Shown here piece by piece: positions 19,197 through 49,100 of a stretch of DNA of 57,135 bases. Position 1 is the stretch's first letter; each line of letters opens with the position of its first letter. The stretch is taken from positions 1-57,135 of IMG/VR virus record IMGVR_UViG_3300001336_000023; one strand, written 5' to 3'. The notes below the pieces were generated by a model. That model saw nothing but the letters and a program-made list of their open reading frames with translations, was not told the DNA's origin and did no database searches. This DNA comes from a virus (taxonomy: Duplodnaviria; Caudoviricetes). The translations under genes and the position numbers were made by a program.

Positions 19197-19625
19197 ATGG
19201 AAGAAAAATACTATCAAATGAAACAAAGACACCAAAAAGAATTTGACAATTTCCAAGGGATTGGATTTGCATTTAGTAACAAACAATTCGAAGAAATGTG
19301 TGAAAAATTAGGTGTTAAAACTGAAGAAGCAAATAAAAAAATTACAAGCATAGGTGCAGGAGCATTTATCCTTAAATATCGTGTAAATGCTTATGTAGAA
19401 TTGATCCAACGTGTAACAAAAGAAACAGAAGAAGCAATGAAAGACCCTGAATTTGCTTACGACGCTATTAATTATGAACTAGACAACCACGAATACTGTG
19501 TTACTTACGATGAAACAGAAGCCCTTGAAGCATTAAGTATCACTAATGAAATACTACAAGACAGTCCTATGTTACAAGAGCAACTGAAAAAAGCAAAGAA
19601 ACACCAACTAACAATCAGAAGTTAG
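19197..19625 (+). CDS. Conserved phage hypothetical protein
   Basis: FAFSNKQFEE...YELDNHEY motif; AAAGGAGG RBS. Confidence 0.8.
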   Translation: MEEKYYQMKQRHQKEFDNFQGIGFAFSNKQFEEMCEKLGVKTEEANKKITSIGAGAFILKYRVNAYVELIQRVTKETEEAMKDPEFAYDAINYELDNHEYCVTYDETEALEALSITNEILQDSPMLQEQLKKAKKHQLTIRS

Positions 19626-20393: not shown

Positions 20394-20647
20394 GTGTATC
20401 TTCTATAGCACATCCTCAGCAATGTGTTATACAAGGTACATTTGTGTGTATCTACCATCCTAAGACATCTTTCTACAATAGAAAGGTGTCACCTAGAGAG
20501 AATGATAATGTCTGCGTAGTGTAACACAAATTATTATTATTCTTTCTAGGTGGCACGTTCACGGAGAACAATGTCACCCTGACACAACATGAATGTGTGT
20601 ATCAATCCACACATTCGCATCCCCTTCCTTATATGCTTATGCATATA

Positions 20648-20676
20648 TTGACTTGATTGATCCTGAGAGGGACAAT
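20648..20676 (+). promoter_or_regulatory. Putative sigmaA promoter upstream of the tRNA-like element
   Basis: TTGACT-17 nt-GACAAT; predicted start near 20683 coincides with the 5' arm of a 13-bp stem. Confidence 0.45.
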
Positions 20677-20738
20677 CGCCTCAGATAGGCTGTACATAAA
20701 AAATAAAACAAAAGTTGATTAGTGCAGTCTATCTACTT

Positions 20739-20851
20739 GGTTTCGTAGTGTTCAACGAAAGCACATCGTCCTAAAGTACTTACATATTGTGTCAACGTAA
20801 CACAGTAAGAGACAGTGAGCGAGAGTATAGGTTCAAATCCTATCGAAACCC
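20739..20851 (+). tRNA. tRNA-like RNA with ~40-nt hairpin insertion in the anticodon loop (identity undetermined)
   Basis: Acceptor GGTTTCG/CGAAACC, TA at 8-9, D-stem GTGT/GCAC, T-arm ATAGG-TTCAAAT-CCTAT; anticodon arm imperfect and interrupted; no encoded CCA. Confidence 0.65.
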
Positions 20852-21012
20852 CTATTAGTAGAGTATCTTAGCCTAGCATTTAACCCGAGACTTCACCCTT
20901 TTTTAAGTCTTATCCATTGCAAAAACTAAGCTACTCTAAACTACACCCCCGGCACTTGTGCGGGGGTTTTTATTATAAAATTTTATAAAAAAAAATAAGG
21001 AGGAAACAAAGT

Positions 21013-21411
21013 ATGAAAACAACATTATCACCATTTAGAAACATGAATGCATTTATGGTTACCTTTAAGTTTACAGGGAGAGAACTATTACAAGCATCAA
21101 GTAATAAACCTCAATCCTTAAAAATTCTTGACGAAAAAGGTAATGAAAATTATTGTTTGGTAAACGCATCAACAACAACTGCTGATACAGTAGGAGCATC
21201 ATTCCCATTTGCAGGACATGATGAAGACCAAGCAACAAAACCTGTAAGAGTATTATTTCAAATTGAAGGAAACACAGAGGACGTTGTAAAACTTAACGCC
21301 GCAAGAGTTATGACCAATCTGCAAGTAATCGAAGATCAAATCATTAAAGCCGCAAAAGAAGTACAAAAAACCATTGATTCAATCAAATTCGATGATGAAG
21401 GAGCTGAATAA
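21013..21411 (+). CDS. Hypothetical protein, first gene of Ubl cassette
   Basis: AAGGAGG RBS; 2 nt from the Ubl gene. Confidence 0.8.
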   Translation: MKTTLSPFRNMNAFMVTFKFTGRELLQASSNKPQSLKILDEKGNENYCLVNASTTTADTVGASFPFAGHDEDQATKPVRVLFQIEGNTEDVVKLNAARVMTNLQVIEDQIIKAAKEVQKTIDSIKFDDEGAE

Positions 21412-21413
21412 AT

Positions 21414-21638
21414 ATGTTTAGAGTTTATGTAGGTGTTCCTCAAAATGACAAATTAGTTACTGTTACAGGAGAAGAAACTGTTACAGAGTTATTAGAAAAA
21501 CAACAACTAAAAACTTCAGGATTAATCCAACACAACGGTGCTACTTTAAAAGCTCAAGACTTGGGTAAAAAACTTAAAGACATCGGATTTACTGAAGGAG
21601 ACATGTTGTACGTAGTTCAAAAATTAGATAATGCATAG
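21414..21638 (+). CDS. Ubiquitin-like (beta-grasp) protein
   Basis: 74 aa; beta-beta-helix pattern (ETVTELLEKQ), NGATL...GKKLKDIGFTEGDMLYVV parallels the ubiquitin GKQL..GRTLSDYNIQKESTLHLV pattern; adjacent to E2/JAB/E1 genes. Confidence 0.8.
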   Translation: MFRVYVGVPQNDKLVTVTGEETVTELLEKQQLKTSGLIQHNGATLKAQDLGKKLKDIGFTEGDMLYVVQKLDNA

Positions 21639-21665
21639 AAAAGAAGGACCCCCCTTCTTTTTTAT
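21638..21665 (+). terminator. Terminator/attenuator between Ubl and E2-like genes
   Basis: AAAAGAAGG-acccc-CCTTCTTTT followed by further Ts. Confidence 0.6.
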
Positions 21666-21686
21666 TTGTGAAAGGAGGGCGTTTAC

Positions 21687-22961
21687 ATGCCTAAAGTATT
21701 TGATTTAGTAGAGTATCATTTTAGTGATAGCAATATAGGGGTATACAACATAGTACTAAAAACAATTGTTCTATTATCTTCCCCTACCTTATTATCTTTT
21801 TTAGCATATCTAAAAAAAATAGAAAGCCGACCTTTTAAAGACCATAAAATGGTTAACATAGGTAGTGTTCTTAGAAGAAATTCTAACCAAATAGCGACTA
21901 CAGCATTGCACAACAATACCCTCGTACTAAATTTTGAAATGAACCAAGAAACAGTAATATATTACCAAACATTAGCAAAAGAAGTAGAAAAACAAACTTT
22001 TAAAGATCAAATAAGCACAATAGAAAGATTATGGGAAGAAGACGACCCAACCATACGCCATTTTAAAAATTATCCCTTTAAAGACATGTATAATATAGAC
22101 GATAAATTAAGAGACATCCCAGAATTTATCACTTTACCAGAAGCAATTAAATTAAGAATCATTAATCTTGAATTTTTACAAAATTACAACACTTTAGACC
22201 TTATAGATCCTAAAGAGTTGGAAAACCTCATTACTCAATTAACAAAAAATCGATTAAGCGAATTAGAAAAACAAGAAAAAAATATAGCTGATGATATAAG
22301 AAACAAAATACAAAAAATTGAACCGCTATATAGAGTCTTAGAAACAATCAATAAAGAAATAAATAATTTAATAAGTAAAGGAAGAGAAAAAATCCTAGAA
22401 GAACTATTACGTTACTTAAAACAAACAACTGACATAGAAAAAATTAATATAGCATCTAACACAATACACCTTATAACAACACCACTACTTCTAAATTTTG
22501 ATCAAGAAAAAGCCTTAAAATCACAACGTATCAAAGAACAAGTAAAAGAACACATCAAAAAAGAAGGAAAATTTGCAATAGGACGCTATACTATAACAAT
22601 TACTATGGAAAATAAGTTAGCTTTTATTGTAAAACCATTAAATTATCCACATATAAACAGACATATAAACATAGGTTGTTATGGACAAAGAGAGAAAGCA
22701 ATACAAGAAGCAAGACTAGAAGGAAATATAGCTCATCTTATTTCTCATCTTATTGCTGCACTCAAAGGCGCTACAGTAAATGACGGACCAGGAAATAACA
22801 CAATTAATGGTAGTATTTTTATTGAAAAAGACGGATTAAAGAATGTAGAAAATATAGGAAAAGTAAGTTTAAAAAGATACATAGATGAATATCTTAAAAA
22901 ACCAGATGCTAGATATACAACAGGTGAAACAACAATACCAGAAAGAGAGAACCCATTCTAA
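21687..22961 (+). CDS. Coiled-coil protein with C-terminal E2 (UBC)-like domain
   Basis: YPHINRHINIGCYG resembles the HPN/H...CLG active-site region of prokaryotic E2s, followed by two helices; its only Cys is here; context between Ubl and JAB. Confidence 0.6.
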   Translation: MPKVFDLVEYHFSDSNIGVYNIVLKTIVLLSSPTLLSFLAYLKKIESRPFKDHKMVNIGSVLRRNSNQIATTALHNNTLVLNFEMNQETVIYYQTLAKEVEKQTFKDQISTIERLWEEDDPTIRHFKNYPFKDMYNIDDKLRDIPEFITLPEAIKLRIINLEFLQNYNTLDLIDPKELENLITQLTKNRLSELEKQEKNIADDIRNKIQKIEPLYRVLETINKEINNLISKGREKILEELLRYLKQTTDIEKINIASNTIHLITTPLLLNFDQEKALKSQRIKEQVKEHIKKEGKFAIGRYTITITMENKLAFIVKPLNYPHINRHINIGCYGQREKAIQEARLEGNIAHLISHLIAALKGATVNDGPGNNTINGSIFIEKDGLKNVENIGKVSLKRYIDEYLKKPDARYTTGETTIPERENPF

Positions 22962-23560
22962 TGATGATACCAGAAGCATTATATCGTACAAAAGACTTAC
23001 AAAAAATTGTACAACCAAGAGTATTCATAACACCAAAAGCATTTACTGATTTACAAGCAATTATCCATAATGAAAGCAATGAAACTTTAATGACTGCATC
23101 AATAGAAAAAATAGAACAAAGCCACGAGTACTATATCACAAAAATCCATATACCCCCACAAACAGAAGTATCCAAAGCCCACGTCGAAACAGATGATGAA
23201 GAATATGGAAAATGGTTAATGACTTTTACAAGAGAACAAAGAAAGAAAATGAAATGCCATATTCATACACACCCTAGTATGGGAGTAACACCATCAGGAT
23301 TAGATACACACACTATATACGCTGTCATAGAGGATTTAGACGACTTTTATATCCAAGTAATATGTAATGAAGAACATAAATTTTATGTTGCAGTTTGGGA
23401 TATAAAAAATAACAGAATATTCAAAAATATTTGGTTAGAATTAGCAGGGAATAATTTAGTATCTTTTAACACAAAAGGCCCTTATGTACACAATATCTTT
23501 GAACAAGAACAACACAAAAAATTAAAAGAAGATTTAAAAAGCAAAATAAAAAATACCTAA
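22961..23560 (+). CDS. JAB/MPN+ metallo-isopeptidase
   Basis: HIHTHPSMGVTPSGLD = HxH-x7-S-x2-D, with upstream catalytic Glu (SNET). Confidence 0.9.
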   Translation: MMIPEALYRTKDLQKIVQPRVFITPKAFTDLQAIIHNESNETLMTASIEKIEQSHEYYITKIHIPPQTEVSKAHVETDDEEYGKWLMTFTREQRKKMKCHIHTHPSMGVTPSGLDTHTIYAVIEDLDDFYIQVICNEEHKFYVAVWDIKNNRIFKNIWLELAGNNLVSFNTKGPYVHNIFEQEQHKKLKEDLKSKIKNT

Positions 23561-23598
23561 AATTAATACAATTTATGGAAAACTAGGAGGTAAAACTT

Positions 23599-24258
23599 AT
23601 GGTAAATCTTAAAAGACAAAGTGAATTTTTCGATCCTATTGACAACAAAGAAGAAATACACATTATTGGAGTAGGTGCAGTAGGTTCCCACATTGCACAA
23701 AACTTAGCAAGACTAGGAATCAAAAGAATCCATATTTGGGACTTTGATGAAGTAGAAGATCATAACATACCGAATCAAATGTTCCGTCAAACAAATATAG
23801 GTACATTAAAAGTAGATGCAATAGAAAACTACTTAAAAGAAATCAACGAAGAAATCGAGGTGATAAAACATGAGAAATACATAGACGAACAAATTAACGG
23901 AATCATATTCAGTTGTGTAGATTCAATAGAAACAAGACGTATCATTTATACAAACAATGAATTTAACACAGATTTAAAAGCAGTATTCGATACAAGAATT
24001 GGATTAGACGACGGACAAATATTTAGTGCCGATTGGTCTAAAGGAAGTAACATCACAAATTTAATTAGTGTATCAGAATTTACGCATGATGAAGCAGAAA
24101 CAAAAGTATCTAGTTGTGGTAGTAAATTAACAGTATTACCTACTGTACAAACAGCCGCAACACTAGCTACATCAAATTTTATTAATTTCATTAAAACGAA
24201 AACTTTAAAAAACAATATTATTTTCAATGCATTTGATTTAACGATCAAAGCTTATTAG
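23599..24258 (+). CDS. E1-like ThiF/MoeB adenylyltransferase
   Basis: IIGVGAVGS, DFDEVEDHNIPNQ, KVDA, CVDS; candidate thioester Cys in SSCGS; no CxxC Zn pairs. Confidence 0.92.
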   Translation: MVNLKRQSEFFDPIDNKEEIHIIGVGAVGSHIAQNLARLGIKRIHIWDFDEVEDHNIPNQMFRQTNIGTLKVDAIENYLKEINEEIEVIKHEKYIDEQINGIIFSCVDSIETRRIIYTNNEFNTDLKAVFDTRIGLDDGQIFSADWSKGSNITNLISVSEFTHDEAETKVSSCGSKLTVLPTVQTAATLATSNFINFIKTKTLKNNIIFNAFDLTIKAY

Positions 24259-24700
24259 GCAAACTTAAGATTTATTACAAATCATAGTGTAAACTATAAC
24301 CCAAATACTAGATTAGGGGATATTCAAATGAGAAAACGCATATGGTGAAGAAAGAAACTGCACCACCGAACTTGGGAGAGTTTGGATCCAACCACTTAAT
24401 GGCGATTGCGCTGTTAAACAAAGTATCTAAACGACACAATAAGGTTAGTATAAGATGAAGTTAGCATGGCTGCAATAAGTTATAATTACCCATCTAGAAA
24501 ATGAATCAGAATTCTGTACGATGAGGAAATTGAAGAAAGTCTAGTTAATATAAGAATAAAAAAGATCTATATTAATTAAAATAGGTAAAAGCTTAGCCTG
24601 CGAGGAAGAGCTACAAATAGAGAAGTATAACTTATTAGAAACTAAAACACTAGATGCAACATAATTATAAAAGAACCTTCAAAAAACTTAAGAAATGAAT
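24259..24700 (+). ncRNA. Candidate retron-type ncRNA upstream of RT
   Basis: ~450 nt non-coding; hairpins TGGTG/CACCA, CCGAACT/AGTTTGG, TTAATGGCG/CGCTGTTAA; possible closing pair ATCATAGTGT (24281-24290) with ACACTAGAT (24647-24655). Confidence 0.55.
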
Positions 24701-24713
24701 AGGAGTATGCCAA

Positions 24714-26075
24714 ATGAAAACAAAATTTATTATAACCGTACCAAATAATAGAAACAAACACACAGGAGTATCAGCAAAACTAACACGCCCAACTCTTGAA
24801 GAAATACTACTGTATAACGCAAAAGATTTTTGGAAAACATTAAACTATTTACCTGATTATATATCTTATCAAAGAGAAATAGATGAACACAGGTATATTA
24901 AACAATATTTTCCTAGCAAAACAGTATTAACTGATTTATTTTATGCAGCATTCACACACGATGACCAAAAAACATCTAACCGCTTAAACCGTAAGCACAG
25001 CCGTTACGTAGAGCGTTATAATAGTTATGTATATATTACAAACCAATTAAAACCTTTTATTGAAAAAATGGAAAAATTCATTACAACAGATTTTATAAAC
25101 AATAAAAAAGACTATTATGATTATTGGGAAAAGAAAGAATACAAAGGAAAAGATGATGCAGGTAATGATATTTGGAAATACCGTATAATTCAACCACCTA
25201 AAGACGAACTCATGGATTTACATAAAGAAGCTAATCTTCTTTTTCAAAACACATTACAGATACACCCTCACGAAGCAGTTCACTCTTTTCGTAAAGCGCG
25301 TTCCCCTTATACCAATGCAAAAAGACACCAACAAAGTAAACATATTGTCAAAACAGACATCAAAGATTTTTATCCTAATATAACAAAGAAGTTTTTAAGA
25401 AAACAGTTGTGTTCTCTTAAAGAGTTTGCTATAATAGACACAACAACAGATAAATTGGCACCTGAACAACAAGATTATAAAAATACAATCACAAGATTTC
25501 TAGAAGGAATCGTTGAACTTGCAACACTAAATAATGAACTTCCTCAAGGTGCACCGTTATCGCCTTTACTATCAAATTTAGTATTCACACCTTATGACTT
25601 AGCCATCTATGACTACTTAGCAAATAAACCAAAAGAAATAAGTTCAACTTACGTAATGTATACACGTTATGCTGATGACTTATTCTTCTCTAGTCTACAT
25701 AAAATTGACAAAGGTGCACTTATTTTAAAAGTAAATCAAACTATTGCAGATTCAAATTTTACACTACATGAACGAAAAACAAAATACTTTAAAACAAAAC
25801 AAAGAGTATTTATTACGGGTGTTAAAATTAATCAAGAAAACAATTTAACTTATGGATATGAAAAAAAAGAAGATTTAAAAAAACGCATTTTTCAAACTTT
25901 AATTATCATTAAAAACAAACAAAATATAGACGAACACGAAGTACAAATGTTGATAGGTGATATCAGTTTTGCTAAAAGTATTGAACCTCAATACATTAAT
26001 AATGTAATAGCAAAATACGCTAGAAAATTCAATATCCCTGTACATCGTTTCTATAAACATTTGCTTCAAAAATAA
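24714..26075 (+). CDS. Retron-type reverse transcriptase
   Basis: YRIIQPP, NAKRH (retron region X NAxxH), TDIKDFYPNI, LPQGAPLSPLLSN, YTRYADDLFFS, ITGV (region Y VTG-like); ~150-aa N-terminal extension. Confidence 0.92.
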   Translation: MKTKFIITVPNNRNKHTGVSAKLTRPTLEEILLYNAKDFWKTLNYLPDYISYQREIDEHRYIKQYFPSKTVLTDLFYAAFTHDDQKTSNRLNRKHSRYVERYNSYVYITNQLKPFIEKMEKFITTDFINNKKDYYDYWEKKEYKGKDDAGNDIWKYRIIQPPKDELMDLHKEANLLFQNTLQIHPHEAVHSFRKARSPYTNAKRHQQSKHIVKTDIKDFYPNITKKFLRKQLCSLKEFAIIDTTTDKLAPEQQDYKNTITRFLEGIVELATLNNELPQGAPLSPLLSNLVFTPYDLAIYDYLANKPKEISSTYVMYTRYADDLFFSSLHKIDKGALILKVNQTIADSNFTLHERKTKYFKTKQRVFITGVKINQENNLTYGYEKKEDLKKRIFQTLIIIKNKQNIDEHEVQMLIGDISFAKSIEPQYINNVIAKYARKFNIPVHRFYKHLLQK

Positions 26076-26083
26076 AATAAAAA

Positions 26084-26414
26084 ATAAAATTGCTACAAAT
26101 CAGTCAAGTATAAGGTAGGAGAACTTAACCAAAGCAAAGCCGGTGTATGAACCGTCCCGAATTGCAGGGAAATGCATACTGACCTAGTTAAAATACTTTT
26201 ATACGCACCAAGACAACCCAACTACTAACAGTAGGGGATATCTAACAAAATACCATTAATGTATAGGGTAGAAGAAATCTCGACTAGAAAACTAATTTTT
26301 AGTGAGCTACAATTTCGGGATCAGGCTCTTCAAAAAAGAAAAGACTTCAGAGCTTGATCCCAAAATCGCACCGCACCAAAAATTAAACGTCTTGATATTT
26401 ATAAGCGATTTTAT
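26084..26414 (+). ncRNA. Candidate retron-type ncRNA downstream of RT
   Basis: Ends pair: ATAAAATTGCT (26084-26094) with AGCGATTTTAT (26404-26414), plus TCAAG/CTTGA; small 5' hairpins and a 13-bp 3' stem GGGATCAGGCTCT/AGAGCTTGATCCC (26317-26361). Confidence 0.6.
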
Positions 26415-26427
26415 AAGGAGGAACACC

Positions 26428-26892
26428 ATGAATAGAACATTTATCTTAAAAGACCCCGCAGAAAGTACAAAAAAACGAATGTGGGAAGTACAATTTTATC
26501 TTAATATGTTAGAACTTACAGGAGGTACTGTAAACGACTATTATGTGGATAACATTGTAGAAAACATTATGCTAAAAGCAGGAGCCAAAGTTAGTGTTTT
26601 AAACGTGGCTTATAGTGAACTAAGTGGTCGAGTAAATCGTCCTAGTCCATTAGAGCTTATTATGGCTAACCATTATCTAGACATTCCTGTAAGGTCAATT
26701 ACAGCAGTAACACATACTGCAAACCGTACTTTATACAATGCTTTAGAAACTTATATCAAAAATGGAGACTATGATTTACACCCAAAACTTGATGAAAACA
26801 CATTATTAGAGATCAAAAAATTCAATGAATCAATTAGATACATTTTCCCACACATATCAAAACTAGCAAGCAAAGGAGTATGTTATGATTGA
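26428..26892 (+). CDS. Hypothetical protein
   Basis: AAGGAGG RBS supports ATG 26428 rather than GTG 26302. Confidence 0.75.
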   Translation: MNRTFILKDPAESTKKRMWEVQFYLNMLELTGGTVNDYYVDNIVENIMLKAGAKVSVLNVAYSELSGRVNRPSPLELIMANHYLDIPVRSITAVTHTANRTLYNALETYIKNGDYDLHPKLDENTLLEIKKFNESIRYIFPHISKLASKGVCYD

Positions 26893-27364
26893 TTTAAAAG
26901 AGTTTAATCCCGAAACAGAAAAACCACTCTATGAAGCAGTATTAAACTTCAATGAAGAATTTGCAAAAGATTCAGCAATCATGACTTTAGGGTATTATGA
27001 ACTTTATAAAAGATTTAAAAACCGTACTTCATTAACAGCAATCGATTGGAGAAACTTCTATAGAGATAAACGTGTTCAAAACTTCTATAACGATGAACTA
27101 AACATGCAACTTGAAGTAAAAATCCAAAAGTTATCTCATAGTAGTGATTTGTCCACAAGTGATAACACCACCCTGACAAATCTAATTAAACGTAAACGTG
27201 ATGAAGAAGGAATCAATGCTGATGACGGAAAAATCTTTGTATATACTTTCATACCACTAACTTCAGAAGAGGAGAATGCAGAAAATGTCAAAATCTTATC
27301 ATTTGTCCCTAAAGAGATTAAAGGTGCCATACACGTTCTTGAAGGGAATAAAAACAAAAAATAA
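26885..27364 (+). CDS. Hypothetical protein
   Basis: AAAGGAG RBS, overlaps upstream stop; 159 aa. Confidence 0.75.
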   Translation: MIDLKEFNPETEKPLYEAVLNFNEEFAKDSAIMTLGYYELYKRFKNRTSLTAIDWRNFYRDKRVQNFYNDELNMQLEVKIQKLSHSSDLSTSDNTTLTNLIKRKRDEEGINADDGKIFVYTFIPLTSEEENAENVKILSFVPKEIKGAIHVLEGNKNKK

Positions 27365-28934
27365 GTTAGAAGTATTCCCAGCATCACCAACCATCGTTAA
27401 AATCTTGGTAGATGATAAGGCACTTGCTTCACATTTTATGCAACAAAGAAAAGCGTTACTGAACAAGAAAAAGAATCATACAAATGCACCCATCTATGAT
27501 GAAAGATTACGCCCCTACCAAAATGCCGAAGTAGATTTTCTGATAAACTTCAAAAAAGGTAAAGGCGTTTTTGATCAACAAAGAGTAGGAAAGACGCCAA
27601 TAACCTTAGTGACTATGCGTGAACTCAATCAAAACAAATGCCTTATTCTAGTTCCTAAATCTAATATTCATAAATGGATACAAGAGTACAAGAAATGGCA
27701 CGGAGGACCTTGCTACACTACAACCGATTGGTATCCCCCACAACGAAGAAAAGAAGAGTACAGCCAAAATTTAGGCACTTTAATTACAAACTACGAAAAA
27801 CTCATCCAAGACTATGATGAAATCATCGAAAGTTTTGGTTCTTTTGATGCCATAATTGTCGATGAAGCCCATATGCTAAGAAATTATAAAGGTCTTAGTT
27901 TCAAAATTAGTGGAAAAGATAAAGAAGATAACCCAATTAAAAAATACAAAAGCCCCGAAGTAACAAGAGCAATTATGGAAACTAGGTCACTAGCGAAGGA
28001 TGCCTACGCTTTAACAGGTACACCTGCACCTACAGCCCAACATAATGTTTTTGGTATTTTGGCTTTTTTATTTCCCGATTTATTCAGTAGTTACAACAAA
28101 GCAATGAATTATTATTTCAATAGAAAAACCTTTGATTTAAAAGACCAAAACATCAAATTTAGTACGATTGGAAAGTTCCAAAACAAGTTCAAAGAAAAAG
28201 AATTTGTCGAATTTTTAGAAACATTTTCCGTTCAAACAAAACGTAAAGACGTAATGAAATGGATTCCTGAAGTAGATGAAGAAATTTTCATTTTAGAACC
28301 TAGTCCAAATGTGGTAAAATGGCATGAGGAACTTCATAAATATTTTGAAACAGAAGATATTATTTGTCCCGACCAATTATCTGTTATGACTAGAGAAAGG
28401 CAACTATCAACATATCCACGTATTCTAGGATTAAACGACGACGGCCCGAAATTCAAATGGATAAAAAACCACATCAAAGATTACCCGAACACCCCCTTGA
28501 TAATCGCGGGGGCGTTTACTGAAATACTCAAAGCCTTACAAACCTATTTAAAAGATGATAAAAGAGTCAGAATTATGCATGGTGGTACTTCTTCTAAAAA
28601 TAGAAAAAAATTAGAAGACGACTTTCAAGCAGGAGAATACGATATTTTAATTGGAAATATCAAAGTTATTTCTCTAGGATTAACTTTATCTAGAGCAGAA
28701 GAAATTATTCTTTTAGATCCGTCTTTAACACAAGCAGACAACGAACAAGTATTAGACCGTTTTATCCCCACGACCCCTGAAGAAGCAGAAGCCAAAGAAG
28801 GGCAAACCATCATTCGTTTACTTAGTAAAGACACCATTGATGAATATATCGCTAAACAACTGCAAAGACGAAAAACAGAAAACGATATCATCAATGATTA
28901 TACAAGGACTTTAATAAAACATGCCAAACTCTAG
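27276..28934 (+). CDS. SNF2-family (SF2) helicase/ATPase
   Basis: LRPYQ, DQQRVGKT, IIVDEAH, LTGTP, GLTLSRA, EQVLDR; start uncertain. Confidence 0.9.
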   Translation: MQKMSKSYHLSLKRLKVPYTFLKGIKTKNKLEVFPASPTIVKILVDDKALASHFMQQRKALLNKKKNHTNAPIYDERLRPYQNAEVDFLINFKKGKGVFDQQRVGKTPITLVTMRELNQNKCLILVPKSNIHKWIQEYKKWHGGPCYTTTDWYPPQRRKEEYSQNLGTLITNYEKLIQDYDEIIESFGSFDAIIVDEAHMLRNYKGLSFKISGKDKEDNPIKKYKSPEVTRAIMETRSLAKDAYALTGTPAPTAQHNVFGILAFLFPDLFSSYNKAMNYYFNRKTFDLKDQNIKFSTIGKFQNKFKEKEFVEFLETFSVQTKRKDVMKWIPEVDEEIFILEPSPNVVKWHEELHKYFETEDIICPDQLSVMTRERQLSTYPRILGLNDDGPKFKWIKNHIKDYPNTPLIIAGAFTEILKALQTYLKDDKRVRIMHGGTSSKNRKKLEDDFQAGEYDILIGNIKVISLGLTLSRAEEIILLDPSLTQADNEQVLDRFIPTTPEEAEAKEGQTIIRLLSKDTIDEYIAKQLQRRKTENDIINDYTRTLIKHAKL

Positions 28935-37498: not shown

Positions 37499-38434
37499 AT
37501 GAATGCACAACTAACAATGAAATTAGACTCAAACACATTTATACCAAAAAATGAGAGTCTAGAAGGAACTCTTCAAGATAGTTTTACAGAGTTCTGTACA
37601 CAATTAGGCTTCCCTGTAGGTGTGGCCAACATTATGGATTTAGACCAAGACGGATTTGCAGAAGCAAGAGCAAATAGTTTTGGAGCAAGTGATTCGTCTG
37701 TAATCCTAGGGGTAGCATATTCTTCTTCAAGAGTAGAAATGAAAACATTATCTCAACTTGTCGATGAAAAAGTCAACAATGTCTTTGATGAAGAAATTGG
37801 AAAACTTGCATCTGTACGTAAAGGAAAAGAACTCGAGGATATGATTATTCATAAAATCGAAACAATCCTTAACGCAACAATTATCAAACCTGACCATATG
37901 TTTATTAATGGAAAAGGACTCGCAACCAACTTTGACGGAATTATCTTTGAACAATTACCTGATGAAGAACATACCATCATTGAAGACTATATGCCTATCC
38001 CTATGGAAATCAAAGTGTGTAGTTTCTTCGGCCGAAAGAATTATGATTGGAACAAAGGATTATCGGAATTTGCAGGAGACTTCAATTTAAACGTATTAGA
38101 TAAACCACGTTTAAGACTAATGAACGATATAGAAATTAGTGAGTATGTGGAACTGCAAGCAGATTACTACGGAATCCCAAAATATTATTACACACAACTA
38201 CAACAACAAATGTTATTCACTGATGCGTCTCATGGTTATTTAGCCGTCATGGATGACATTAATTGGACAATTTACTTTTACAAAATCTTAAGAGATGCAT
38301 ACGTTATCAACACTTTGAATTTACGTTCAGAACAAGCGTATACACAATTGATTGCTAGAAAAGGACTTAAAGACAAAGTCGCATCACAATTTATTGAAGA
38401 ACAATCTAACGGTATAAATAATGAGGACTTATGA
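37499..38434 (+). CDS. YqaJ/lambda-exonuclease family nuclease
   Basis: R..SFGASDSSVILG, GKELE, ATNFDG, EIK, YYTQLQQQM. Confidence 0.85.
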   Translation: MNAQLTMKLDSNTFIPKNESLEGTLQDSFTEFCTQLGFPVGVANIMDLDQDGFAEARANSFGASDSSVILGVAYSSSRVEMKTLSQLVDEKVNNVFDEEIGKLASVRKGKELEDMIIHKIETILNATIIKPDHMFINGKGLATNFDGIIFEQLPDEEHTIIEDYMPIPMEIKVCSFFGRKNYDWNKGLSEFAGDFNLNVLDKPRLRLMNDIEISEYVELQADYYGIPKYYYTQLQQQMLFTDASHGYLAVMDDINWTIYFYKILRDAYVINTLNLRSEQAYTQLIARKGLKDKVASQFIEEQSNGINNEDL

Positions 38435-38777
38435 AGAAGAATCAAAAAAACCTATAGCAACAGCTATAGCACTTTTAAGAAAAGAAATAAGAGAACTCAA
38501 TGAAAAAATTTATAAGACAAGATTAGAAGGTTTTGTCCCAGAAGGAGAGATAATGAAAATGATTCATCCTGAATTTATCGTACGTATACAAGAAGAGCAA
38601 AAAGAACTTAGAGAGCGTTACATAAAATTACGTGACTTTATGCGTTCAAAAAAATACAGTGATTTAAGTACAGCAGAGAAACTCTTACTAGAAAAACAAT
38701 TAGAACATATGGACGATTATGAACGTATTCTTATTATCCGTTTAGCAATATACGGAATTAAAATAGACGAAGAATAA
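38421..38777 (+). CDS. Helical-hairpin protein, crAss001_48-like C-terminal domain
   Basis: RIQEEQKELRERYIKLRDF...LLEKQLEHMDDYERILIIRL pattern. Confidence 0.6.
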   Translation: MRTYEEESKKPIATAIALLRKEIRELNEKIYKTRLEGFVPEGEIMKMIHPEFIVRIQEEQKELRERYIKLRDFMRSKKYSDLSTAEKLLLEKQLEHMDDYERILIIRLAIYGIKIDEE

Positions 38778-40119: not shown

Positions 40120-43100
40120 CTAGCGTCGATACGGATGCTGTGTTTCTGCCCAGCGATATCTCGTTTTGTCCATTGGGCTATATTGTAGGTGTCCATATGC
40201 ACGGAAGGATGTACGTTCTGAGTTCGTAGGTTTTGCAAAGTTTGCATTTCTTGAAAGAAAAGCTGTTCTAGGATAAGCACTACGTCCTCCGTAGTAAGGG
40301 TCCACCAGACTAGGGAATATGTTGTCTAGACTTTTTGCGTTCCCTGATGCTACGTTTGCTATGTTCTTTACTTGATTTAGCCCTGGACTTCTCATGATTC
40401 TGTCTTGTGTATCTAAGTCAGAGTCCGGTGTGATTCGTGTTGACATGTTTCTAATTAATGGGTTAATCTTTCTAACCAATTGATCAGGTATTCCTGTTTG
40501 TTTTTGCATACCTGTAAAGGTTAATGCGTCTGCAAATGTGAATCCTGTTTGTAAAGCATAATTACCAATAGGGATATTCCCTCGTGACATTTGATATTGT
40601 GCGTAATCATTGTCGTCTATTTCGTCTCCCCAAGCGAGAAGCATTGCTTTAGAAAGAGTTCTTGCAGTTACTGCATCTTGGTAAAACGCTTCGTTCCAAA
40701 ACTCAATACTTCGGATTGGATAAGATACGAATGGAATAACCATCTCAGCCCATACTTCTGCTTGTGTTTTGTTTGCGTAGTTGAAGTGGGTCTTGAGTAT
40801 TTTGTTCAACGATTCATTGACTGTGAGTCCTTTACGTATATCATTGATGTGTAATCCTAGACGTCCTACAGTTTCTGACCAACCATTGATTTGTAAATTT
40901 GCTCCCCATGGTGTGTATTTTCCATATAGACCTTTTGTGTAGGCTTTCATAATTAAAGAGTCTTGTCCTTGGCCAATAATCCCTTGACGCATGTGCATCA
41001 TCATTTGATGAGCCTCGCTTGCTGCTGCCGGTGTACTGACAAAGTCATCTACAAATTTTGTAATTTCTAAGTCTTCTAATTCTTTTGCACTGAATGTGTG
41101 CCCTTGTTTTGTTTTTGCTTCAATGAGTAAGTCTATCCAACTTATTGCATAGTCTTTTTTCCTTGCGGAATAACTTACTAATTCTGCTGCTTCATTATAA
41201 TATTTTGTATAAGTGTTGTGCCAACGCATAGCAACAAATGTATCATACCATACTGACACAGGAGCAAGTACTCCTCCTTCTGCCGCAACTACATTCTTTA
41301 AGTTAATATCAAAGAAGTTGTTTGTGAAGAAATTGACTGTTGTAAGTGAGAATACTTTTAATGGCATAATTAAGCCTTTATGTATTGCTTTTGCTAGAGG
41401 GTTACTCAGTTGATATTTTTGTTTTGTTACACGTTCTAATTCATGGATGCTGTGTTGGTCTAGTACACCCATAGGTAACATCTCTGTATGTGCGCCTATT
41501 CCCCAATCACTTACGTCTGCACGTTTTAGAGCAATGTCTAAAGCGTCTGTTTTTGAGTTTGCACGGAGTAGGTTGTCTAGTTCCATGATATGTTCTACTT
41601 TTGGGTTGTGTACTCTACGCACTGCGTACCCTGATTTTACTCCTTCGTCTTTCACAAGCATTACAACATCATGACCTGCTTTTCTTATATACTTTAAGAA
41701 TTCTTTTGCTCCTTCTCTTCCTTCGCCATACTGTGTACGTATGTGTCTGTAACTGTCACTGAAAGATTTTTGGATATTGTCAATTGTTTGTGCTTTAGTG
41801 TATTTGAATACTTCACTCTCTTTGATGACCCCTGTTTCATACCCTTTAGATAAGGCTTCATAATATTTTTGATCATAAGACCCTGTTAAGTAATCATAAT
41901 AAGTGGCATAGATTCTTTTTTCAAATTCTATATAAGCGTCTGGATCAACCATTTCGCCACCTTGTTTTGTTTTTAAGTATCCTTTATAAGGGTCTCCTCC
42001 CCATTCTCGAATTGGTGCAAACTTTTCATTTAGTTCTTTAAAGTAAGGGTCGTCTACGGCTAATAAGTTTCTCATAATGTCTGCTTTGATATTACGTCCT
42101 TTTGTATTAGCACGATTGCTATATGCAAAGCGCATGATGTCTTCAGGGTCTCCTAAGTTTTCTAATAAGCGATGCATGATTTTTAGTTCAGGACGATTGT
42201 CTTGGTAAGGTATCGCATCTTCGACTGTCTTTGTAATATCATCACTAAATAACATATTCATTAAACGTGTTATTGATCTTTGTGTTCGGCTGTAGTCTGT
42301 TAAGCGTAAAACACTTGCACTACCTTTACGTGCCAAGTCTCCAATATTCACTATGTCTGCGAAGTACTCCGGATTCTCTACACCAATTTCTTTTGGTAAG
42401 CTTCCTTTTTTCAATCCTTCTTGGATTCCTCGGATATAGGCTTTCCATTCTCCTACTTGTACAGGGTTGAGTTCTGATGCAGCATTTTTGTACTTGATAT
42501 CTCTTAATGGTTTACGGATATTTTCCATTGCGCCATGAATGATTTCTGACAACTCTTGGTAAATGATACTTGCTTTTTGTTGTGCAGCATAATCCATAGT
42601 ATTCGTTTCAAAGAATGCTGTAGGGTCTAAGATAGACTGTTTCATTACTTCGTATAACCTGTTCGTATACTTTGTTGTAGGGTTGAGCATTATTGCTTCT
42701 TCAGGGAATCCTCTATCCTTTAGACTACGTATTCTACGCTGTATGTAGGTGTAGAACTCTTGTAGGGCACTGTTCGATAAATGGTCTTCGTCAAACTTAC
42801 TGATCATTTTGTTCGCTTCAGTACCCTTCATGATTTTTATAAAGTCTGTAAATGATTCAAATTCTGAAAACTCAGATACATTTCCTTTTAATAATTGTTG
42901 TCTGTGGTTTCTTATTTTTTTGTTTAACACTTTATCAACGTTGTACATTAAATCGTACATATCGTGATAAATAATCCTTGATCCTAAAGGCCCTTTAAAA
43001 TAAGCTTTATTGCTATCCAAAGTTTCTTTAGTGCGCAAGATTTCGAATATTCTTTCTTGGGTTTTTGTGTAGTCATTTGTCGCCTCCATATTTTCTATTA

Positions 43101-46100
43101 ATTTTGTTAGTGGGTCTTCTTTGAAGTTTGCTTTAAATGAACGTACAAGACCTTTACCTTTTATCTTAGGGTCCACACTGTGTTTAATAATTCCATCGTG
43201 TTGCGCTTGGATTAATTTTTGGTACATATATTCCCTAAAGAAAGCAGACATACGTTGATCGGCTGAGCTGCCTTCTATTCCTTCTTGTAAGACCGCATTT
43301 TGTATACGGTGGTATTCTTCGTTTTTTGTAAATTCGTTGAGGATGCTTATGTGATTCTTCATAGCGGAGTCTTGTAACACTGCAACTTCATTACCATATT
43401 GATAAGATAATTGTTCTGCATAATGTTCTGATTGTTTCTTTGTCAATCCATTAGGCCCTAATATTTTTTCGTCGATAGTCGTACGTAAATCTTCTAATAA
43501 GCGTAATGAGTCTTCTTCTAAAGAATATGTATCATCTAATGCAGAAAGACCTAGACTGTCTAATTTTGCATGTACACGTCCTAGAAGTCCTTCTACTCTT
43601 GTAGCTTCTTGATGTAAAGACTGTAGGCTAAGTATTTGTCTTTCACGCATCGCAGTAATATCTCCTTCACGAACAATGCGAATTGTTTTGTTTAGTTGTT
43701 TACGTAAGTCTTCACGGAACTCTAATAATTCACTGATATCTTCTACTAGTATATCAATATCGGTTCGCGCGTTAATGATACCCTTTTCGAGAAGGTCGTT
43801 GTATACTTCATCAACACGGTAATAGTCTTCAACCTTTTGGCGTATAGTTTGACTTGTTCCATCTAAGTCAGGGATATCAATGTATTTTTCATAGGCTACA
43901 CTATCACCTAACTCATCTGCGATATCCTGCATCATATCAATAATATCTTCGCTATACCCTTCACGTCCTGCAATGTTAAGCTCTTCTAAATCTTTTGCAT
44001 TTAGGTAATTCTTAGCCATACTATACTGTCCTTCAGTGGCTGCCATTTCTGCTATGTCATCTACGCCTGAGTCTGCTCCATAGAGTAATCTGTAAGTTAT
44101 TTCTGCATCATATGCAGCATTGTGGAAGTAGGACTTGCCATCTGGACGTGCGTTTGTTTTTACACCTTGTGCTAATTTGTTTAGTATTGTATCATCATAA
44201 GCTCGTTGAGCAATATCTTTTAATCCGCTTTTACCACCTTTTGAATTGATGCGGAAAATTGGTAAAGTATCAAATATGTATTTATCTTTGATCCCTAATT
44301 TGAAAAGCATGTTCGCATCATGTTTTGCATTTTGTGCAATAACGACATCAATATCTTTTAAAAGTTCTTGCACTTTTCCGCTTACGATATCAAATTCTTC
44401 TGCAACATCTTCATAATGCATAGGGTCAATCCCTGTAAATTCAAAGAAGTAATCTCCGTGATTGTATTTCTTTTTTACTTTAGCAAAAAATTCATGACGT
44501 TCTACCTTAATTGTTCCGTCAGGTAATTTACGTCTTACGACTAAAGCTATTTGTGTAGGGTGTTTAACATTAGGATCGGGGTCCGGCATATCTTCCATGT
44601 CTAGTGTTGCAGTATTGTAATCATAAAGATCGCCCTCTAAAGTTTTGTTTGAGTATTTCCCATCACTATCTAAGTAAGTCATAATAGATGGCGGTTCTTC
44701 TACTTTGTGTCTATAGAACCCTCCTACGTATGTGTTTGTTGTGTATTCATCAATGTTGTTGTGCATCGTGTTAAATATTCCTTCTTTAGAGAAAGGGCCA
44801 CGTTGTCCTTCTAGTTGACTGCTGACCTCGTGAATCTTTTTCCCATCTACCATTTCTGTAGTAATGTTTAGGCTTAATGCGTTTTGGTCTTTTTTAAGAA
44901 GCGTAAATACTTCTTCAAATTGTTCTGTAACATACAGGTCTCTAAAAGTTTCGATTTCACGCATCATGTCTTCTGTACCTTTATATTTGTTCAAGATAAT
45001 TTCACGTGCTTTAGCTTCTCTTGGTGTTGTCATATCTTCTATAGTTTTTAAACGTTCAGCGAGTTCGTCTAAACTTTTGTTGTATTTTTGTACTCGTTTA
45101 AAACGACGCAATAATTCAGGACTGAACTCTGCGATAATATCTTCAGGGATATGTTTATGTAAATCTAAAGTGTAAAAGTCTTCTTGAAAGATTGGGCGTA
45201 AAATACGTCTAGCAAAAGCTTCGATTGCTTCAGCAGTATGCATTCCTCCGAGGCTTGCTTGTTTTTTCATATTGTCAATAACGTTAAACATTTGCCTTAT
45301 TTCAAACTTGTATAATATACCTTTAGTTAAAGGGACATCATCATTAATGAAGATCGATGCATTGATAAAGTCTTCAGGGCTACTGTCCTTACTCATAAGA
45401 ATACGTTCGATTTCTTTTTTTGGGTCATCTTGCATACTGTATAGTTTTACTTTACGGAAAAGTTCTCTTGTTTCTTTTGTATGCAATCTCTTATATAGTA
45501 ATTCTTGGTCTTGTATTTGACGATATAGTTGCGTGTGTTCATTTGCAATTTTGTAAAATGTCGTATGTACTTGTTCGTTTACTTTTTCTAAGAAACGGTA
45601 CAAAGTTAAATCAGTGATTTCTACATCGATATCTTTTGCTCCAGCATATTCTTCAAATGAACGGCGTAACTTATTAATAATGTCTTCCATTTTCCCAAAG
45701 TCTTGACGTTCTGTTTGAATTGCTTTGATGATATCATCTATTGCTAATCGATGCTGTATGTAGTTTTGTCCTTCTAACTGATCAAGGTGTTTTGTAATTT
45801 TAGTATTTTTTATACGACGTTTAACTTTTGTAAAACTTTGCCCAAGTCCTACTGTACGTAATTCTGTGATCAAATTATTGACAGTATTGTGTACACTAAT
45901 AATGAGTTGTTCGATTTCAGAAGGAGTTCCAGCATTTTTATAAGCAACGTTTCCTAAAGAATCTATAGGTCTTATGTGGTGCTTGTAACCTAAGTTTCTT
46001 AATACGTTTTTCCCTACACGTAAATTGGCTATAACTTGAGCAAACATGTTTCCGTTGTGTAAATCTTTTACATAGTACAACATATCTTGTGTAGACATAC

Positions 46101-49100
46101 TTGCAACAAGTTCCGTGTTTAATCCTTCAAATAGTTTCCCCCATATACCTTTATCTGTTTTATTATAAGTTTCTTTTGCTTCTGCAATAGCAGCTTTCCC
46201 AACATCTGTCATGTCATCTGCGTAACGTACTTCGCGTTCTAGTATAGTTTTATACGCTGTGAATGCATCTTCAAAAACTTTGTACTCTTCCATTTGACTA
46301 GCGTTTAAACCATCAGGTCCTTTATTCAGTAATGTCATAAGGAATTGTCCTGCTGCTTTCTTATCTCCCATAATTCCTTCAGTATAGTCTAAGTACAGTC
46401 TGCTTGCACTCTTGTAGTTCATGTATATAATATCTTCTGCTTGATTACGTCCTGCTATATATTTCCCTGTGCGAATTTTTTCAAAGAAATTAATATTTTG
46501 TTGTAAAGTTTTAAATATTTTTGCACTAGGAGCACTTTCAGTAAACTTTTTACTCATAAAGTCTTTCATAAAATTGGCCAATGCATTTTTTGCGTTTTCT
46601 TCTTTTTTGATTTCTTCTGTAAGTTCTTTAATTACCTTTTCATTTTTTGTGTATTCTTTCCCCTTGTTTATCTTTTGTGCTTCAAAACTTTCTTTAAGTT
46701 TCTTTGCATCATTCAAACGAGACTCCAATCCTTCTATCGTTAAGTCCCCTTGTTTAGTGTAAAATATCTCGATATCTTTTGCCGCTTGGAGGATGATATC
46801 TTCTGTGTACATATTCCCCTTCAATGCTTCTTTTAAAATTTTTGTATGTAGATCATCATACAGTTTTCTTTGCATTGTAATATCGTAGTCTAGTCCTTCA
46901 AAACGGTTATTGAGATTGTCTATTAAGCGAATAGCGTCTTTGTATTCTTCTATCATTTCTTTACGCCCATCAGCAGCAATGAAACGTTTAAGGTCTTCTA
47001 TTCTTTTGAAACGTTTGTGGATTTCTTTTAAACGTGCTTCATTGTTTTTGATGAATTTATAATAGTCTTCGATGTATGTATCTGCAAGCGCACGAAAAGC
47101 ACGGTAAGTATTTTCATTACCGGGGCGTTTTAAAAAGGCAATAAGAAAGTCCGCTTGTTGAGTATTCGTTGTAAGGACTTCCAAAACATCTAGAATTTGT
47201 TTAGCGAAATTGTATTCGCGTTCTAAATTCTTTTTTAAAGACATTGCTTTACTTAAAACTTCAGAACCTTTTTTCTCTGTTTCGTCTAAACGTTTTAGAT
47301 GTTCTCCTGCTTCACGTATTTCAGTAGTATATTTTTTCAACCCCTCTTCGTTTGCACGAGATAAGAGACGTTTTGTTGCAGCAGTATCTCCATACTTTTT
47401 AATGTGTGCGTTGATACCTGCAATAGTTTGTTGTACTTGTTTCTCAAGACCTTCAGTCTGGTTACTCTTTAAAAGAGCATCTTCGTATGCACGTTGTTCT
47501 TGTAACAGCTTAACATACTCTTCGGTTTCTTTGTTGAAGTCTTCTCCTGCATCCATACGTCGATTGAAGTTATCTAATAAATTTGTACGTTCTGCTTCCA
47601 TTTGACTAAGGGATTTTTCAAAACTATAAATTTCTTGATTTGCTGTTTGTACTTGTTTAGAATTTTGTACGTTAAGTTCACGTGTACGGTATTCTCTTAA
47701 TAAAGATTCGCGTTCTTGTACTTTACCAAATCGATAATTTCTAAGGCTTTGTCCTTCTTCAATCTTTAAATCTTTACGCATTTGTGCTATACGTTTTGTG
47801 TGTCTATCGATTTCTTTTGCACGAGCGTTAGGGATATTGATATAATCCTCATATATTTTTAACTGTTCTTGTAGTCGCTCTCTACGTTTGAGGATGTCAT
47901 AAATAAGCTCATTATGTTTAAAGGCTTCGTATCTATCTTTAAGAAAAGCAAGATCTTTCTTTGGCTCTTTAAGAGCTTTTTCTATAAGTTCTTTTTTCTT
48001 TTCCATACTCTTAGGCACTTTACGTTTTTTCCATTTTTTCATTTGTTCATGATGTTCTTTTAGTGCTCTTTCATACTCATCGACAGTTTCTTGTGTTTGG
48101 TCTATTGCGTTGCGATAATATTTTGCCGTAACCGCATCATCAGGATTATACTCTGCACCATTATAGTATTCTAGCTCATCATTTGCTTCAGCTAATTGTT
48201 GTTTTATTTTATCTATATTATGCTTAGGGTTTGTGTTTTCTAAACGTAATTTATCTATACTTAGCTCGTACTCTAATGTGTGTATTCGTTCTGACGCTAA
48301 AAGGTCCGCCGCATAAGAACGATCAAAAACTTCTAAACCAGTTGTATAATTTCCTCGTTGTGCTCCAATGTCTTGGATTCTAATATCATACAATTCTTCT
48401 AACTCTGCGATCGTACGTTTATTTTTTTCTATCTCACGAGCCTTTTGGATTTGTAGGTCTTCAATTCTCTTCAATTCTGATTCACTAGGTGCTTCTGCTT
48501 TTTTTAAAGCGTCTTGTAAGTTAATTATCTCTTTCTCTTTAGCAGCGATACTTTCTCTTTGATGCCCAATACGGCTGTACGTTTGTCTTATTTCAAGACG
48601 GACTTCAGGATCATATTTGTTTATATCAAAATTGACTAGACGACTTTTTAAATTCGCTAATCGTTTTTCTTTTTCAGCAATAGCAACTTCCATACCTTTA
48701 CGGTAACTTGCGTGTTTTACACTCTCTAAACTTGCTTTTGTTTTTTCTAACTCTTCAAGTTCGTCTAAACGTTCAATAAGGTTTTCCATTTTTGTAACAC
48801 GTAAATCGAGACTTTCTTTTTCCAACTCATGATGGTCTTTTAAAACACGGATGATGTCGTCTCTTGCAACGATGCTTCTTTCTAAAGCGTCTTTTGTTTC
48901 AGATATACGTGCTTCTATTTCGATTTCTTCTTGTACTAAATCTAGATTAGAATGTTCTTTTGTCATTTTTGCTTTTTTATCTGCAATACGTTTTAATTCT
49001 TTTTCATACGTTTTGATATCTTTCTTTGCTTTTGTAACACGTGCAACACTTTCTTTTTGTTTAATAAGAACTTCTACTTCACGGTACGATATAAACGCTT

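Follow-up and report, generated by a model that had tools for sequence, protein, structure and literature searches.

Retrons and the bacterial ubiquitin-like conjugation systems are both known as parts of host immunity. Retrons, which Mestre and coworkers reportedly sorted in 2020 into types I to XIII, combine a reverse transcriptase (RT), an msr/msd noncoding RNA (ncRNA), and an effector. The conjugation systems closest to the subject of this report are Bil (BilABCD), the Cap2/Cap3 enzymes of the cyclic oligonucleotide-based antiphage signaling system (CBASS), and Bub. Here we describe a locus of a tailed phage (positions 21013 to 26414 of IMG/VR record IMGVR_UViG_3300001336_000023) in which six co-directional plus-strand genes encode in order a protein that we call A, a ubiquitin-like protein (Ubl), an E2-like protein, a JAB metallopeptidase, an E1-like enzyme, and a retron-type RT. 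The window, by which we mean the whole stretch of DNA analyzed, is the entire virus record (57,135 bases, rated 100% complete). The pairing of RT and Ubl cassette recurs in many uncultured phages and seems to be undescribed. A literature search turned up no report of a retron-type RT linked to a Ubl/E1/JAB cassette, with supplementary tables, which might list the association, outside that search; to this extent it agrees with an earlier model-made annotation of the same DNA, the sequence-only reading, which knew of no characterized retron type with such a partner.

Like bacterial retrons, the module has an RT that fits retron RT models and motifs, apparently structured RNA next to the RT that has closing repeats and, in relatives, mostly a G behind the 5′ arm, and accessory genes to which the RT is obligately linked. 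Unlike them, it is encoded by phages rather than in bacterial defense islands, its RT forms a clade of its own, its RNA units, of which there can be several, may stand before or after the RT, its cassette can exist without the RT, and its accessory part is a five-gene Ubl conjugation cassette that is absent from the retron model sets of PADLOC. With Bil, Cap2/Cap3, and Bub it shares a predicted Ubl ending in Gly or Ala, a ThiF-type E1 with its Cys, a Cys-containing protein of putative E2 fold, and a JAB protein; it differs from all three in its separate E1 and E2, in the length of the E2-like protein (400 to 560 amino acids [aa], with a coiled coil), in its residence in phages, and in the addition of RT and A. 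Operon type 6d of Iyer, Burroughs and Aravind (2006; PMC1779556) consists of genes for a Ubl, a JAB protein, an E1-like protein, an E2-like protein, and an alpha-helical protein, and the module resembles it in having the same four core components plus one extra uncharacterized protein. In that article the words “reverse transcriptase” and “retron” occur 0 times, and the 6d E2-like protein is described there as having a conserved His C-terminal to its Cys, whereas in the module's E2-like protein the His precedes the Cys by 9 residues, the order known from classical E2s.

The six open reading frames (ORFs) have exactly the coordinates given in the sequence-only reading: A at 21013 to 21411, the Ubl at 21414 to 21638, the E2-like protein at 21687 to 22961, JAB at 22961 to 23560, E1 at 23599 to 24258, and the RT at 24714 to 26075. 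From A to E1 the intergenic spacers are 2, 48, −1, and 38 nucleotides (nt), followed by a 455-nt gap between E1 and RT (24259 to 24713) and a 352-nt gap between the RT and the ATG at 26428, which is preceded by a strong ribosome-binding site, AAGGAGG. Long structured gaps had been claimed on either side of the RT and nowhere else in the operon; the flanking gaps do fold better than shuffled sequences, but another gap, of 619 nt (20394 to 21012) and containing a tRNA-like element, lies upstream of the first gene. We favor, with modest confidence, the reading that these parts form one conserved phage-borne module, an RT with its RNA unit(s) joined to Ubl, E1, E2, JAB, and A, in which the cassette is the core and the RT and RNA are an added layer of control or specificity. 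The parts, their conserved catalytic residues, their coinheritance, and the structured RNA are all documented in the sequences of the window and its relatives.

Viral relatives of the RT and of E1 were retrieved from IMG/VR contigs with alignment queries, single-protein queries having given nothing. At least 545 RT-encoding stretches and at least 518 E1 relatives were found, and the best 80 loci of each were analyzed. Searched with the window proteins by tblastn, the 80 RT loci showed E1 just upstream of the RT in 72, JAB in 67, and the Ubl in 2, and neither protein A nor the 424-aa E2-like protein was found in any. ORF clustering and profiles then revealed that the missing genes are present though divergent, in the conserved order A, Ubl, E2-like, JAB, E1, gap, RT. 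By profiles, 72 of 80 rows (79 loci and the window, the ORF caller having found no RT in locus L050) have the cassette immediately before the RT, and in the remaining 8 the upstream flank is shorter than 2.5 kb; an RT without the cassette was thus seen in none of the 72 testable viral rows. From the E1 side, the RT follows downstream in 76 of 80 loci, and 2 more are at contig ends. An edge case, locus L009, was resolved when its cassette was found at the other end of the contig: the ends of this record (G001) overlap by 185 nt with 99.5% identity, and the record, classed as linear, is circular or terminally redundant. A metagenome scan for the RT subclade of the window returned nothing nearer than this same record.

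The linkage of RT and cassette exceeds chance by a wide margin. The module is found in records of 42 to 57 kb and of 60 to 139 kb with differing neighbors, and the SNF2/primase/DNA polymerase block is present after it in only 34 to 38 of the 80 loci. Among bacterial genome contigs, the best 80 RT relatives divide into 5 with cassette genes, 58 testable without them, and 17 at contig ends. The five carriers are contigs of metagenome-assembled genomes (Clostridia, Roseburia, Oscillospiraceae, and Peptococcaceae), two of them phage-sized (55.8 and 106 kb); four have the full cassette (one of these, L112, without A), and one has E1 only, on a 4.7-kb contig. In a FastTree tree of 160 RTs, a single 85-row clade (support 100) unites the 77 cassette rows with the 8 edge rows of viral origin; it includes the window RT and stands apart from the 58 cassette-less bacterial retron RTs. 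On the RT side, the sequence-only reading thus withstands the refutation that it had set for itself (closest RT homologs occurring without the cassette), in both neighborhood and phylogeny. Among GenBank phages (August 2025), 9 records match the window E1, and of these only MT835544.1, an unverified scaffold from an uncultured fecal phage, has the whole module; the whole region as a DNA query matched no GenBank phage.

Some variation in gene content was noted along the way. Loci L005 (262 to 777) and L007 have a radical-SAM activase-like gene (Fer4_12, 1.1e-41) inserted between E1 and RT, and some relatives have small genes of unknown function between JAB and E1.

The RT is a protein of 453 aa with its RT domain beginning at about residue 155. 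It is matched by the PADLOC retron RT models, best by II-A (3.1e-41), VI (6.2e-40), and III-A (1.2e-39), with values ranging to 1e-27 and type X scoring alike. The NCBIfam model for the retron St85 RT matches at 2.3e-46 (158.4 bits, below its cutoff of 235), compared to 6e-15 for group II intron RTs and 1e-11 to 1e-12 for DRT models. YADD, NAxxH, and VTG-type motifs are marks of retron RTs; in the window RT, Y319, D321, and D322 of YADD are invariant in the family and A320 nearly so, and N201-A202-x-x-H205 and T368-G369 are conserved. These matches and motifs place the RT in the retron RT lineage. No described retron type accommodates it: the St85 match is below cutoff, several types match alike, the clade is separate, and the accessory genes match no PADLOC retron effector.

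Both gaps beside the RT appear to be structured. Compared to 100 shuffles, the upstream gap of the window folds with a z of −2.05 (3 of 100 as good) and the downstream gap with a z of −4.38 (1 of 100). In most relatives the gap between E1 and RT measures 230 to 460 nt, and in two sequence groups of gaps the ends are conserved and pair with each other, the short hairpins near the 5′ end carry compensatory changes, and the middle varies. RNAalifold, applied to 5 relatives, gave two 5′ hairpins and a closing stem of 10 bp; of 24 pairs, 7 are compensatory. A terminal inverted repeat with z ≥ 2 is present in 15 of 44 gaps scored, and in 13 of these 15 a G stands right after the 5′ arm (20 of 44 overall). 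In retron ncRNAs, closing arms enclose short hairpins on the 5′ side and a long, variable one, and a G follows the 5′ arm in what is called the a2-G arrangement.

In the lineage of the window the arrangement differs. The RT of G001 directly adjoins E1, and downstream of this RT a stretch of 938 nt holds four tandem units of 119 to 308 nt (L009 coordinates 1364 to 2300). Their arms differ in sequence yet remain complementary, their interiors differ, and their 5′ arms end in a TACAC motif. The motif and register occur twice in the window, both on the plus strand. When pairing was counted by script in a fixed register, cognate arms paired at 7 to 9 of 9 positions, with a mean of 8.0; the value for non-cognate combinations was 5.7. 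Compensatory changes occur at five positions. The upstream unit of the window (24265 to 24485), for which the evidence is moderate, has a 5′ arm (24265 to 24276) that ends in the T of TACAAATCA and a 3′ arm at 24474 to 24485; 8 of 9 positions are paired in the same register as in the L009 units. The downstream unit (26084 to 26414; 331 nt) has a 5′ arm at 26084 to 26094, followed by TACAAATCA, and a 3′ arm (26404 to 26414) that abuts the ribosome-binding site of the next gene; its closing stem is present in both the minimum-energy and centroid folds and pairs at 9 of 9 positions, two of them compensatory relative to the L009 units. A second stem in the upstream gap (24474 to 24636, plus strand; inverted repeat I10, with 14-nt arms, 93% complementary, around 135 nt) lies within the minimum-energy fold of the gap and could represent either a long hairpin or one more unit. 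An 18-nt motif common to the L009 units has no counterpart in the window, even with up to 3 mismatches allowed. Folding and compensatory changes together provide good evidence for structured RNA units beside the RT; as templates for reverse transcription, these units are candidates that we propose by analogy to retrons.

Database models account for little of the rest of the module. Above cutoff, Pfam recognizes only ThiF in E1 (1.9e-24) and RVT_1 in the RT (2.8e-17), leaving four of the six proteins without a family; below cutoff there are matches of the JAB protein to Prok-JAB (0.007) and of the 74-aa Ubl to the Ubl-type DUF2604 (0.013), and Pfam has no match for either the 132-aa or the 424-aa protein. 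A PADLOC scan of nine window proteins (21013 to 28934; the six of the module and three downstream) yielded matches to JAB, RT, helicase, and E1 models only, the last being the E1 half of Cap2. No model for a CD-NTase (cGAS/DncV-like nucleotidyltransferase) was matched among these nine, so the locus does not qualify as a type II CBASS, and the accessory genes matched none of the PADLOC retron effector models.

The 74-aa protein (family profile, 78.1 bits) is predicted to be a beta-grasp modifier, ending in ...QKLDNA. Its Atlas model (predicted local distance difference test [pLDDT] score, 0.80) resembles ThiS at a template modeling (TM) score of 0.74 and ubiquitin at 0.71, and besides DUF2604 there is a weak sequence match to ubiquilin (0.16). 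In an alignment of 33 sequences (mean column identity, 46%), G42 and K70 are invariant, and the C termini have the form K-x-[DN]-[NG]-[AG] followed by 0 to 3 extra residues, like Ubl precursors; the tails are NA, GG, or GA, mostly Asn-Ala. Model and tail together identify this protein as a putative beta-grasp Ubl with a Gly/Ala C terminus. The JAB/JAMM metallopeptidase (199 aa; family profile, 173 bits; PADLOC JAB model, 7.5e-4) has the full JAMM motif, with E41, H102, H104, S112, and D115 invariant in 29 sequences. The E1-like protein (219 aa) is a ThiF-family adenylating enzyme by its Pfam match and matches the E1 half of the PADLOC Cap2 “E1-E2” models at 2.9e-15. Its alignment (34 sequences; mean column identity, 48%) has as invariant positions the glycine-loop G29, D48, D50, N56, N59, Q60, D108, R113, and C173, so that a ThiF fold, ATP-binding residues, and a catalytic Cys are all predicted. 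The closest curated families are ThiF and MoeB, and this E1 is a small protein without an E2-recruiting domain.

The E2-like protein (424 aa) is far more divergent, with a mean column identity of 17%. It matches its family profile (70 members) at 37.7 bits, including the His/Cys segment at residues 321 to 374, and H322, C331, and G333 are invariant in 41 sequences. A variable N-terminal part is followed by a coiled coil (about residues 175 to 246) and a C-terminal UBC/RWD-like domain (about residues 229 to 380). In the AlphaFold2 model (mean pLDDT, 62.6 overall), residues 170 to 370 are confident and show a long helix that leads into a sheet of four strands, followed by the His/Cys loop and more helices. 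Foldseek placed UbcH7 at the top (E value, 0.13), with UBE2L6 and UFC1 next, all weak matches. A wide VIA search with the model was swamped by the long helix; a second, more telling VIA search gave named E2 enzymes in 31 of 50 rows and RWD/UEV domains in at least 8 more (Z, 4.9 to 6.9), matched over model residues 229 to 380. No Pfam or PADLOC E2 model matched the sequence, and a PDB sequence-profile search returned coiled-coil matches only. Taking a UBC fold at moderate scores together with a candidate catalytic Cys preceded by a His, we read the protein as a divergent E2 whose N-terminal half may bind targets. The family is a large one, with 2,648 clusters (50% identity level) matched by a profile search among 1.84 billion representative proteins. 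The earlier guess of a “coiled-coil/E2-like” protein gains support from the fold match and the invariant His/Cys pair, and the earlier naming of Ubl, JAB, E1, and retron-type RT agrees with the profiles, folds, and invariant residues.

The likeness of E1 to ThiF and MoeB, its small size and lack of an E2-recruiting domain, a Ubl whose nearest fold is ThiS, and a tRNA-like gene 160 nt upstream of the module would all suit a sulfur-carrier pathway of the ThiS/MoaD-ThiF type, in which a Ubl thiocarboxylate would thiolate a nucleic acid such as the RT product or a tRNA. We consider this the most improbable of the explanations weighed here. The module lacks rhodanese, cysteine desulfurase, and thiolase partners, it never lacks an E2-fold protein in which His and Cys are invariant, and most of the Ubl tails are Asn-Ala rather than the Gly-Gly in which ThiS and MoaD end.

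Protein A, the product of the first gene (132 aa, plus strand), is matched at 51.8 bits by a profile of 38 positional homologs. Its AlphaFold2 model (pLDDT, 89.6) is a conserved alpha/beta fold for which a PDB fold search found no clear relative, the best VIA match having a Z of 6.0; a recurring lead is the type III secretion chaperones, with VIA rows at Z 4 to 5 and a CesT-like match in Atlas (TM, 0.51). In five loci (L032, L036, L042, L050, and L070) Ubl and A are fused into one protein of 202 to 235 aa, with Ubl first (residues 1 to 75) and A from residue 76, whereas unfused loci have A and then Ubl. Deubiquitinases release ubiquitin from fusion precursors, and the Ubl-A fusion may likewise be a precursor split by JAB to release both parts; alternatively, it mimics a linear Ubl-A conjugate. 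Under either reading, the natural fusions indicate that A belongs to the Ubl pathway, possibly as an adaptor or a substrate. The idea that A is itself a beta-grasp protein was dropped, since its clustering with Ubl arose solely via the fusion proteins.

Several results weigh against the single-module reading, and we set them here beside the explanations that they favor. Two phage loci, L244 and L276, keep A, Ubl, E2-like, JAB, and E1 but lack the gap and, by both profiles and tblastn, the RT; the genes that usually follow the RT begin about 12 nt after E1 (7663 to 8100 in L244, 7663 to 8080 in L276). The two loci share 72 to 75% DNA identity, and since they differ by about 25%, the cassette has been maintained without the RT over considerable divergence. 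A more distant case is the crAss-like phage cr128_1 (Steigviridae, Crassvirales; MT774392.1; L325), which has at 18.7 to 22.8 kb a Ubl-x-JAB-E1 set without an RT, with profile matches of 1.7e-5 for Ubl, 1.8e-6 for JAB, and 2.8e-25 for E1 (26% identity to the window E1). Like the module, this set is a Ubl/JAB/E1 group in the replication region of a phage; unlike it, it has no RT and no long gap and does not match the E2-like or A profiles. Its genes are annotated as hypothetical or as “metalloprotease domain,” and a distant Ubl cassette seems to have gone unrecognized in this named member of the Crassvirales. Four more points belong here. The RT tree was made with FastTree only and rooted at the midpoint. 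Pairwise identities of the RT correlate with the corresponding values for E1 (r = 0.86), JAB (r = 0.87), and the E2-like protein (r = 0.92) over 61 loci, coefficients that are inflated by shared ancestry. The fold scores of the E2-like protein are moderate (Z < 8, no Foldseek match at an E value of ≤0.001), so its reading as an E2 needs fold and motif together. The RNA, lastly, has inconsistencies of its own, to which we return below.

The RT is never seen without the cassette, and the cassette is sometimes seen without the RT; this asymmetry suggests a core formed by the cassette, with the RT as an addition, and the two phages that keep the cassette alone are the reason for regarding RT and RNA as an added layer. 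Strict mutual dependence, as implied by the sequence-only reading, is not supported, given these loci and cr128_1; the overall interpretation in that reading is supported in part, in gene identities and linkage. Cassettes without an RT, and a 455-nt gap between E1 and RT that could house a promoter of its own, would also suit two independent neighbors, a phage Ubl cassette and a separate retron-like element held together by the gene order of one lineage. We think this quite unlikely. The pair is kept in both the smaller and the larger records with different flanking genes, the RT clade is exclusive to the cassette with no RT of that clade alone in the testable rows, and in G001 the RT directly abuts E1.

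The same asymmetry fits an RT that depends on the cassette, as it would if the RT, its RT-DNA, or A were a substrate of the cascade rather than its regulator, with Ubl attached to activate, localize, or stabilize it. In CBASS, Cap2 conjugates the CD-NTase, and the five loci with Ubl fused ahead of A could represent a linear Ubl-A conjugate or its precursor. We nonetheless hold a substrate role to be unlikely, if less so than the other alternatives. No invariant Lys is seen in the family alignment of A, and if the RT were the sole substrate, the cassette should decay after loss of the RT, yet L244 and L276 keep all five genes.

As for the RNA, the closing stem upstream of the window RT is weak: an alternative pair spanning the whole upstream gap (24264 to 24273 with 24683 to 24692) reaches a z of 0.4, which is not significant. 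Neither window gap matches any Rfam family, retron-like ones included, the RNA has no constant place, lying upstream of the RT in most relatives and downstream in G001, the nearest relative of the window with context, and no G directly follows the 5′ arm of either window unit. Together with the closing stems of the window, each of which ends at the ribosome-binding site of the next gene, these last three points could mean that the gaps are not RT templates at all but elements of mRNA processing, stability, or translational control, or promoters and terminators, the RT using another template or protein priming. We give this explanation a low probability. In L244 and L276 the gap has disappeared along with the RT, most of the well-scoring gaps have a G behind the 5′ arm (the 13 of 15 noted above), and the architecture resembles that of retron ncRNA.

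If the single-module reading is right, the parts could act as follows. JAB would trim Ubl precursors, including the natural Ubl-A fusions; E1 would adenylate the Ubl C terminus and form a thioester on Cys173; and Ubl would pass to Cys331 of the E2-like protein, whose fast-evolving N-terminal half and coiled coil would pick the target, which may be host immune proteins, proteins of rival phages, or A. The RT would copy part of the flanking RNA unit(s) into a retron-style RT-DNA, and the RT or its RT-DNA would sense or regulate the timing (or the place) of conjugation, in the role that multicopy single-stranded DNA (msDNA) has over retron effectors. This gating of conjugation by RT-DNA is something we infer by analogy. 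The role of the module is probably in conflict with host immunity or with rival phages.

A bolder version would make RT-DNA part of the conjugation chemistry itself, with Ubl joined covalently to the RT-DNA or the RT to yield a protein-tagged DNA, or with each RNA unit encoding a DNA guide of its own that steers the E2-like protein to a different target. We judge this very unlikely. Were the guide form true, it would amount to programmable, multi-template, nucleic acid-directed tagging against hosts or rival phages, and the tandem arrays, of four units in G001 and at least two in the window, would with their differing interiors make up a target repertoire.

The window also has the usual hallmarks of a tailed phage, with genes for a portal, a major head protein, a tail-fiber repeat, a family A DNA polymerase, a primase, and an SNF2 helicase. 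No integrase family was matched among the window proteins, which favors the sequence-only reading's “apparently lytic” phage, but most ORFs match no family at all, so support for that label is weak. Among sequencing runs, the window is contained only in the DNA run from which it came. The tRNA-like element (20739 to 20851, plus strand) scores 32.1 bits with the Rfam tRNA model (cutoff, 29); its acceptor, D, and T arms are intact, and its anticodon region is 51 nt instead of the expected 11, like that of an intron-bearing tRNA. ARAGORN called no tRNA, this element included. The same 619-nt gap has a 27-nt inverted repeat at 20483 to 20559. Within the operon, a hairpin at 21635 to 21665 (plus strand; 13-nt arms, 92% complementary, with a T-rich 3′ arm) begins inside the Ubl stop codon and could be an attenuator of read-through into the enzyme genes; a promoter/terminator scan, which found fewer sites than in shuffles, did not flag it.

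Farther out, the region is flanked by genes for a DUF7659 protein (19197 to 19625, plus strand; 6e-32) and a crAss001_48-related protein (38421 to 38777, plus strand; Pfam, 3.4e-15), the latter of which may point to a relationship with crAss-like phages. A single ORF of 3,409 aa (40120 to 50349, minus strand), with no PHROG family at an E value of ≤1e-5, separates the replication genes from an unannotated minus-strand block, and a thioredoxin-domain protein (53385 to 53948, minus strand; Pfam, 1.3e-11) is encoded amid otherwise unannotated minus-strand genes.

In this module two kinds of system known from host immunity, a retron-type element and a Ubl conjugation system, are joined and are found on the side of the virus, in a family that is large and largely unannotated. 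If the coupling is functional, it would constitute a new retron class with protein tagging as its output and the first case of a phage running a full cascade of E1, E2, and deubiquitinase. It would also offer natural combinations of an RT with multiple-template arrays, of interest for retron-based DNA production, and a direct handle on the role of phage-encoded retron-type RTs.

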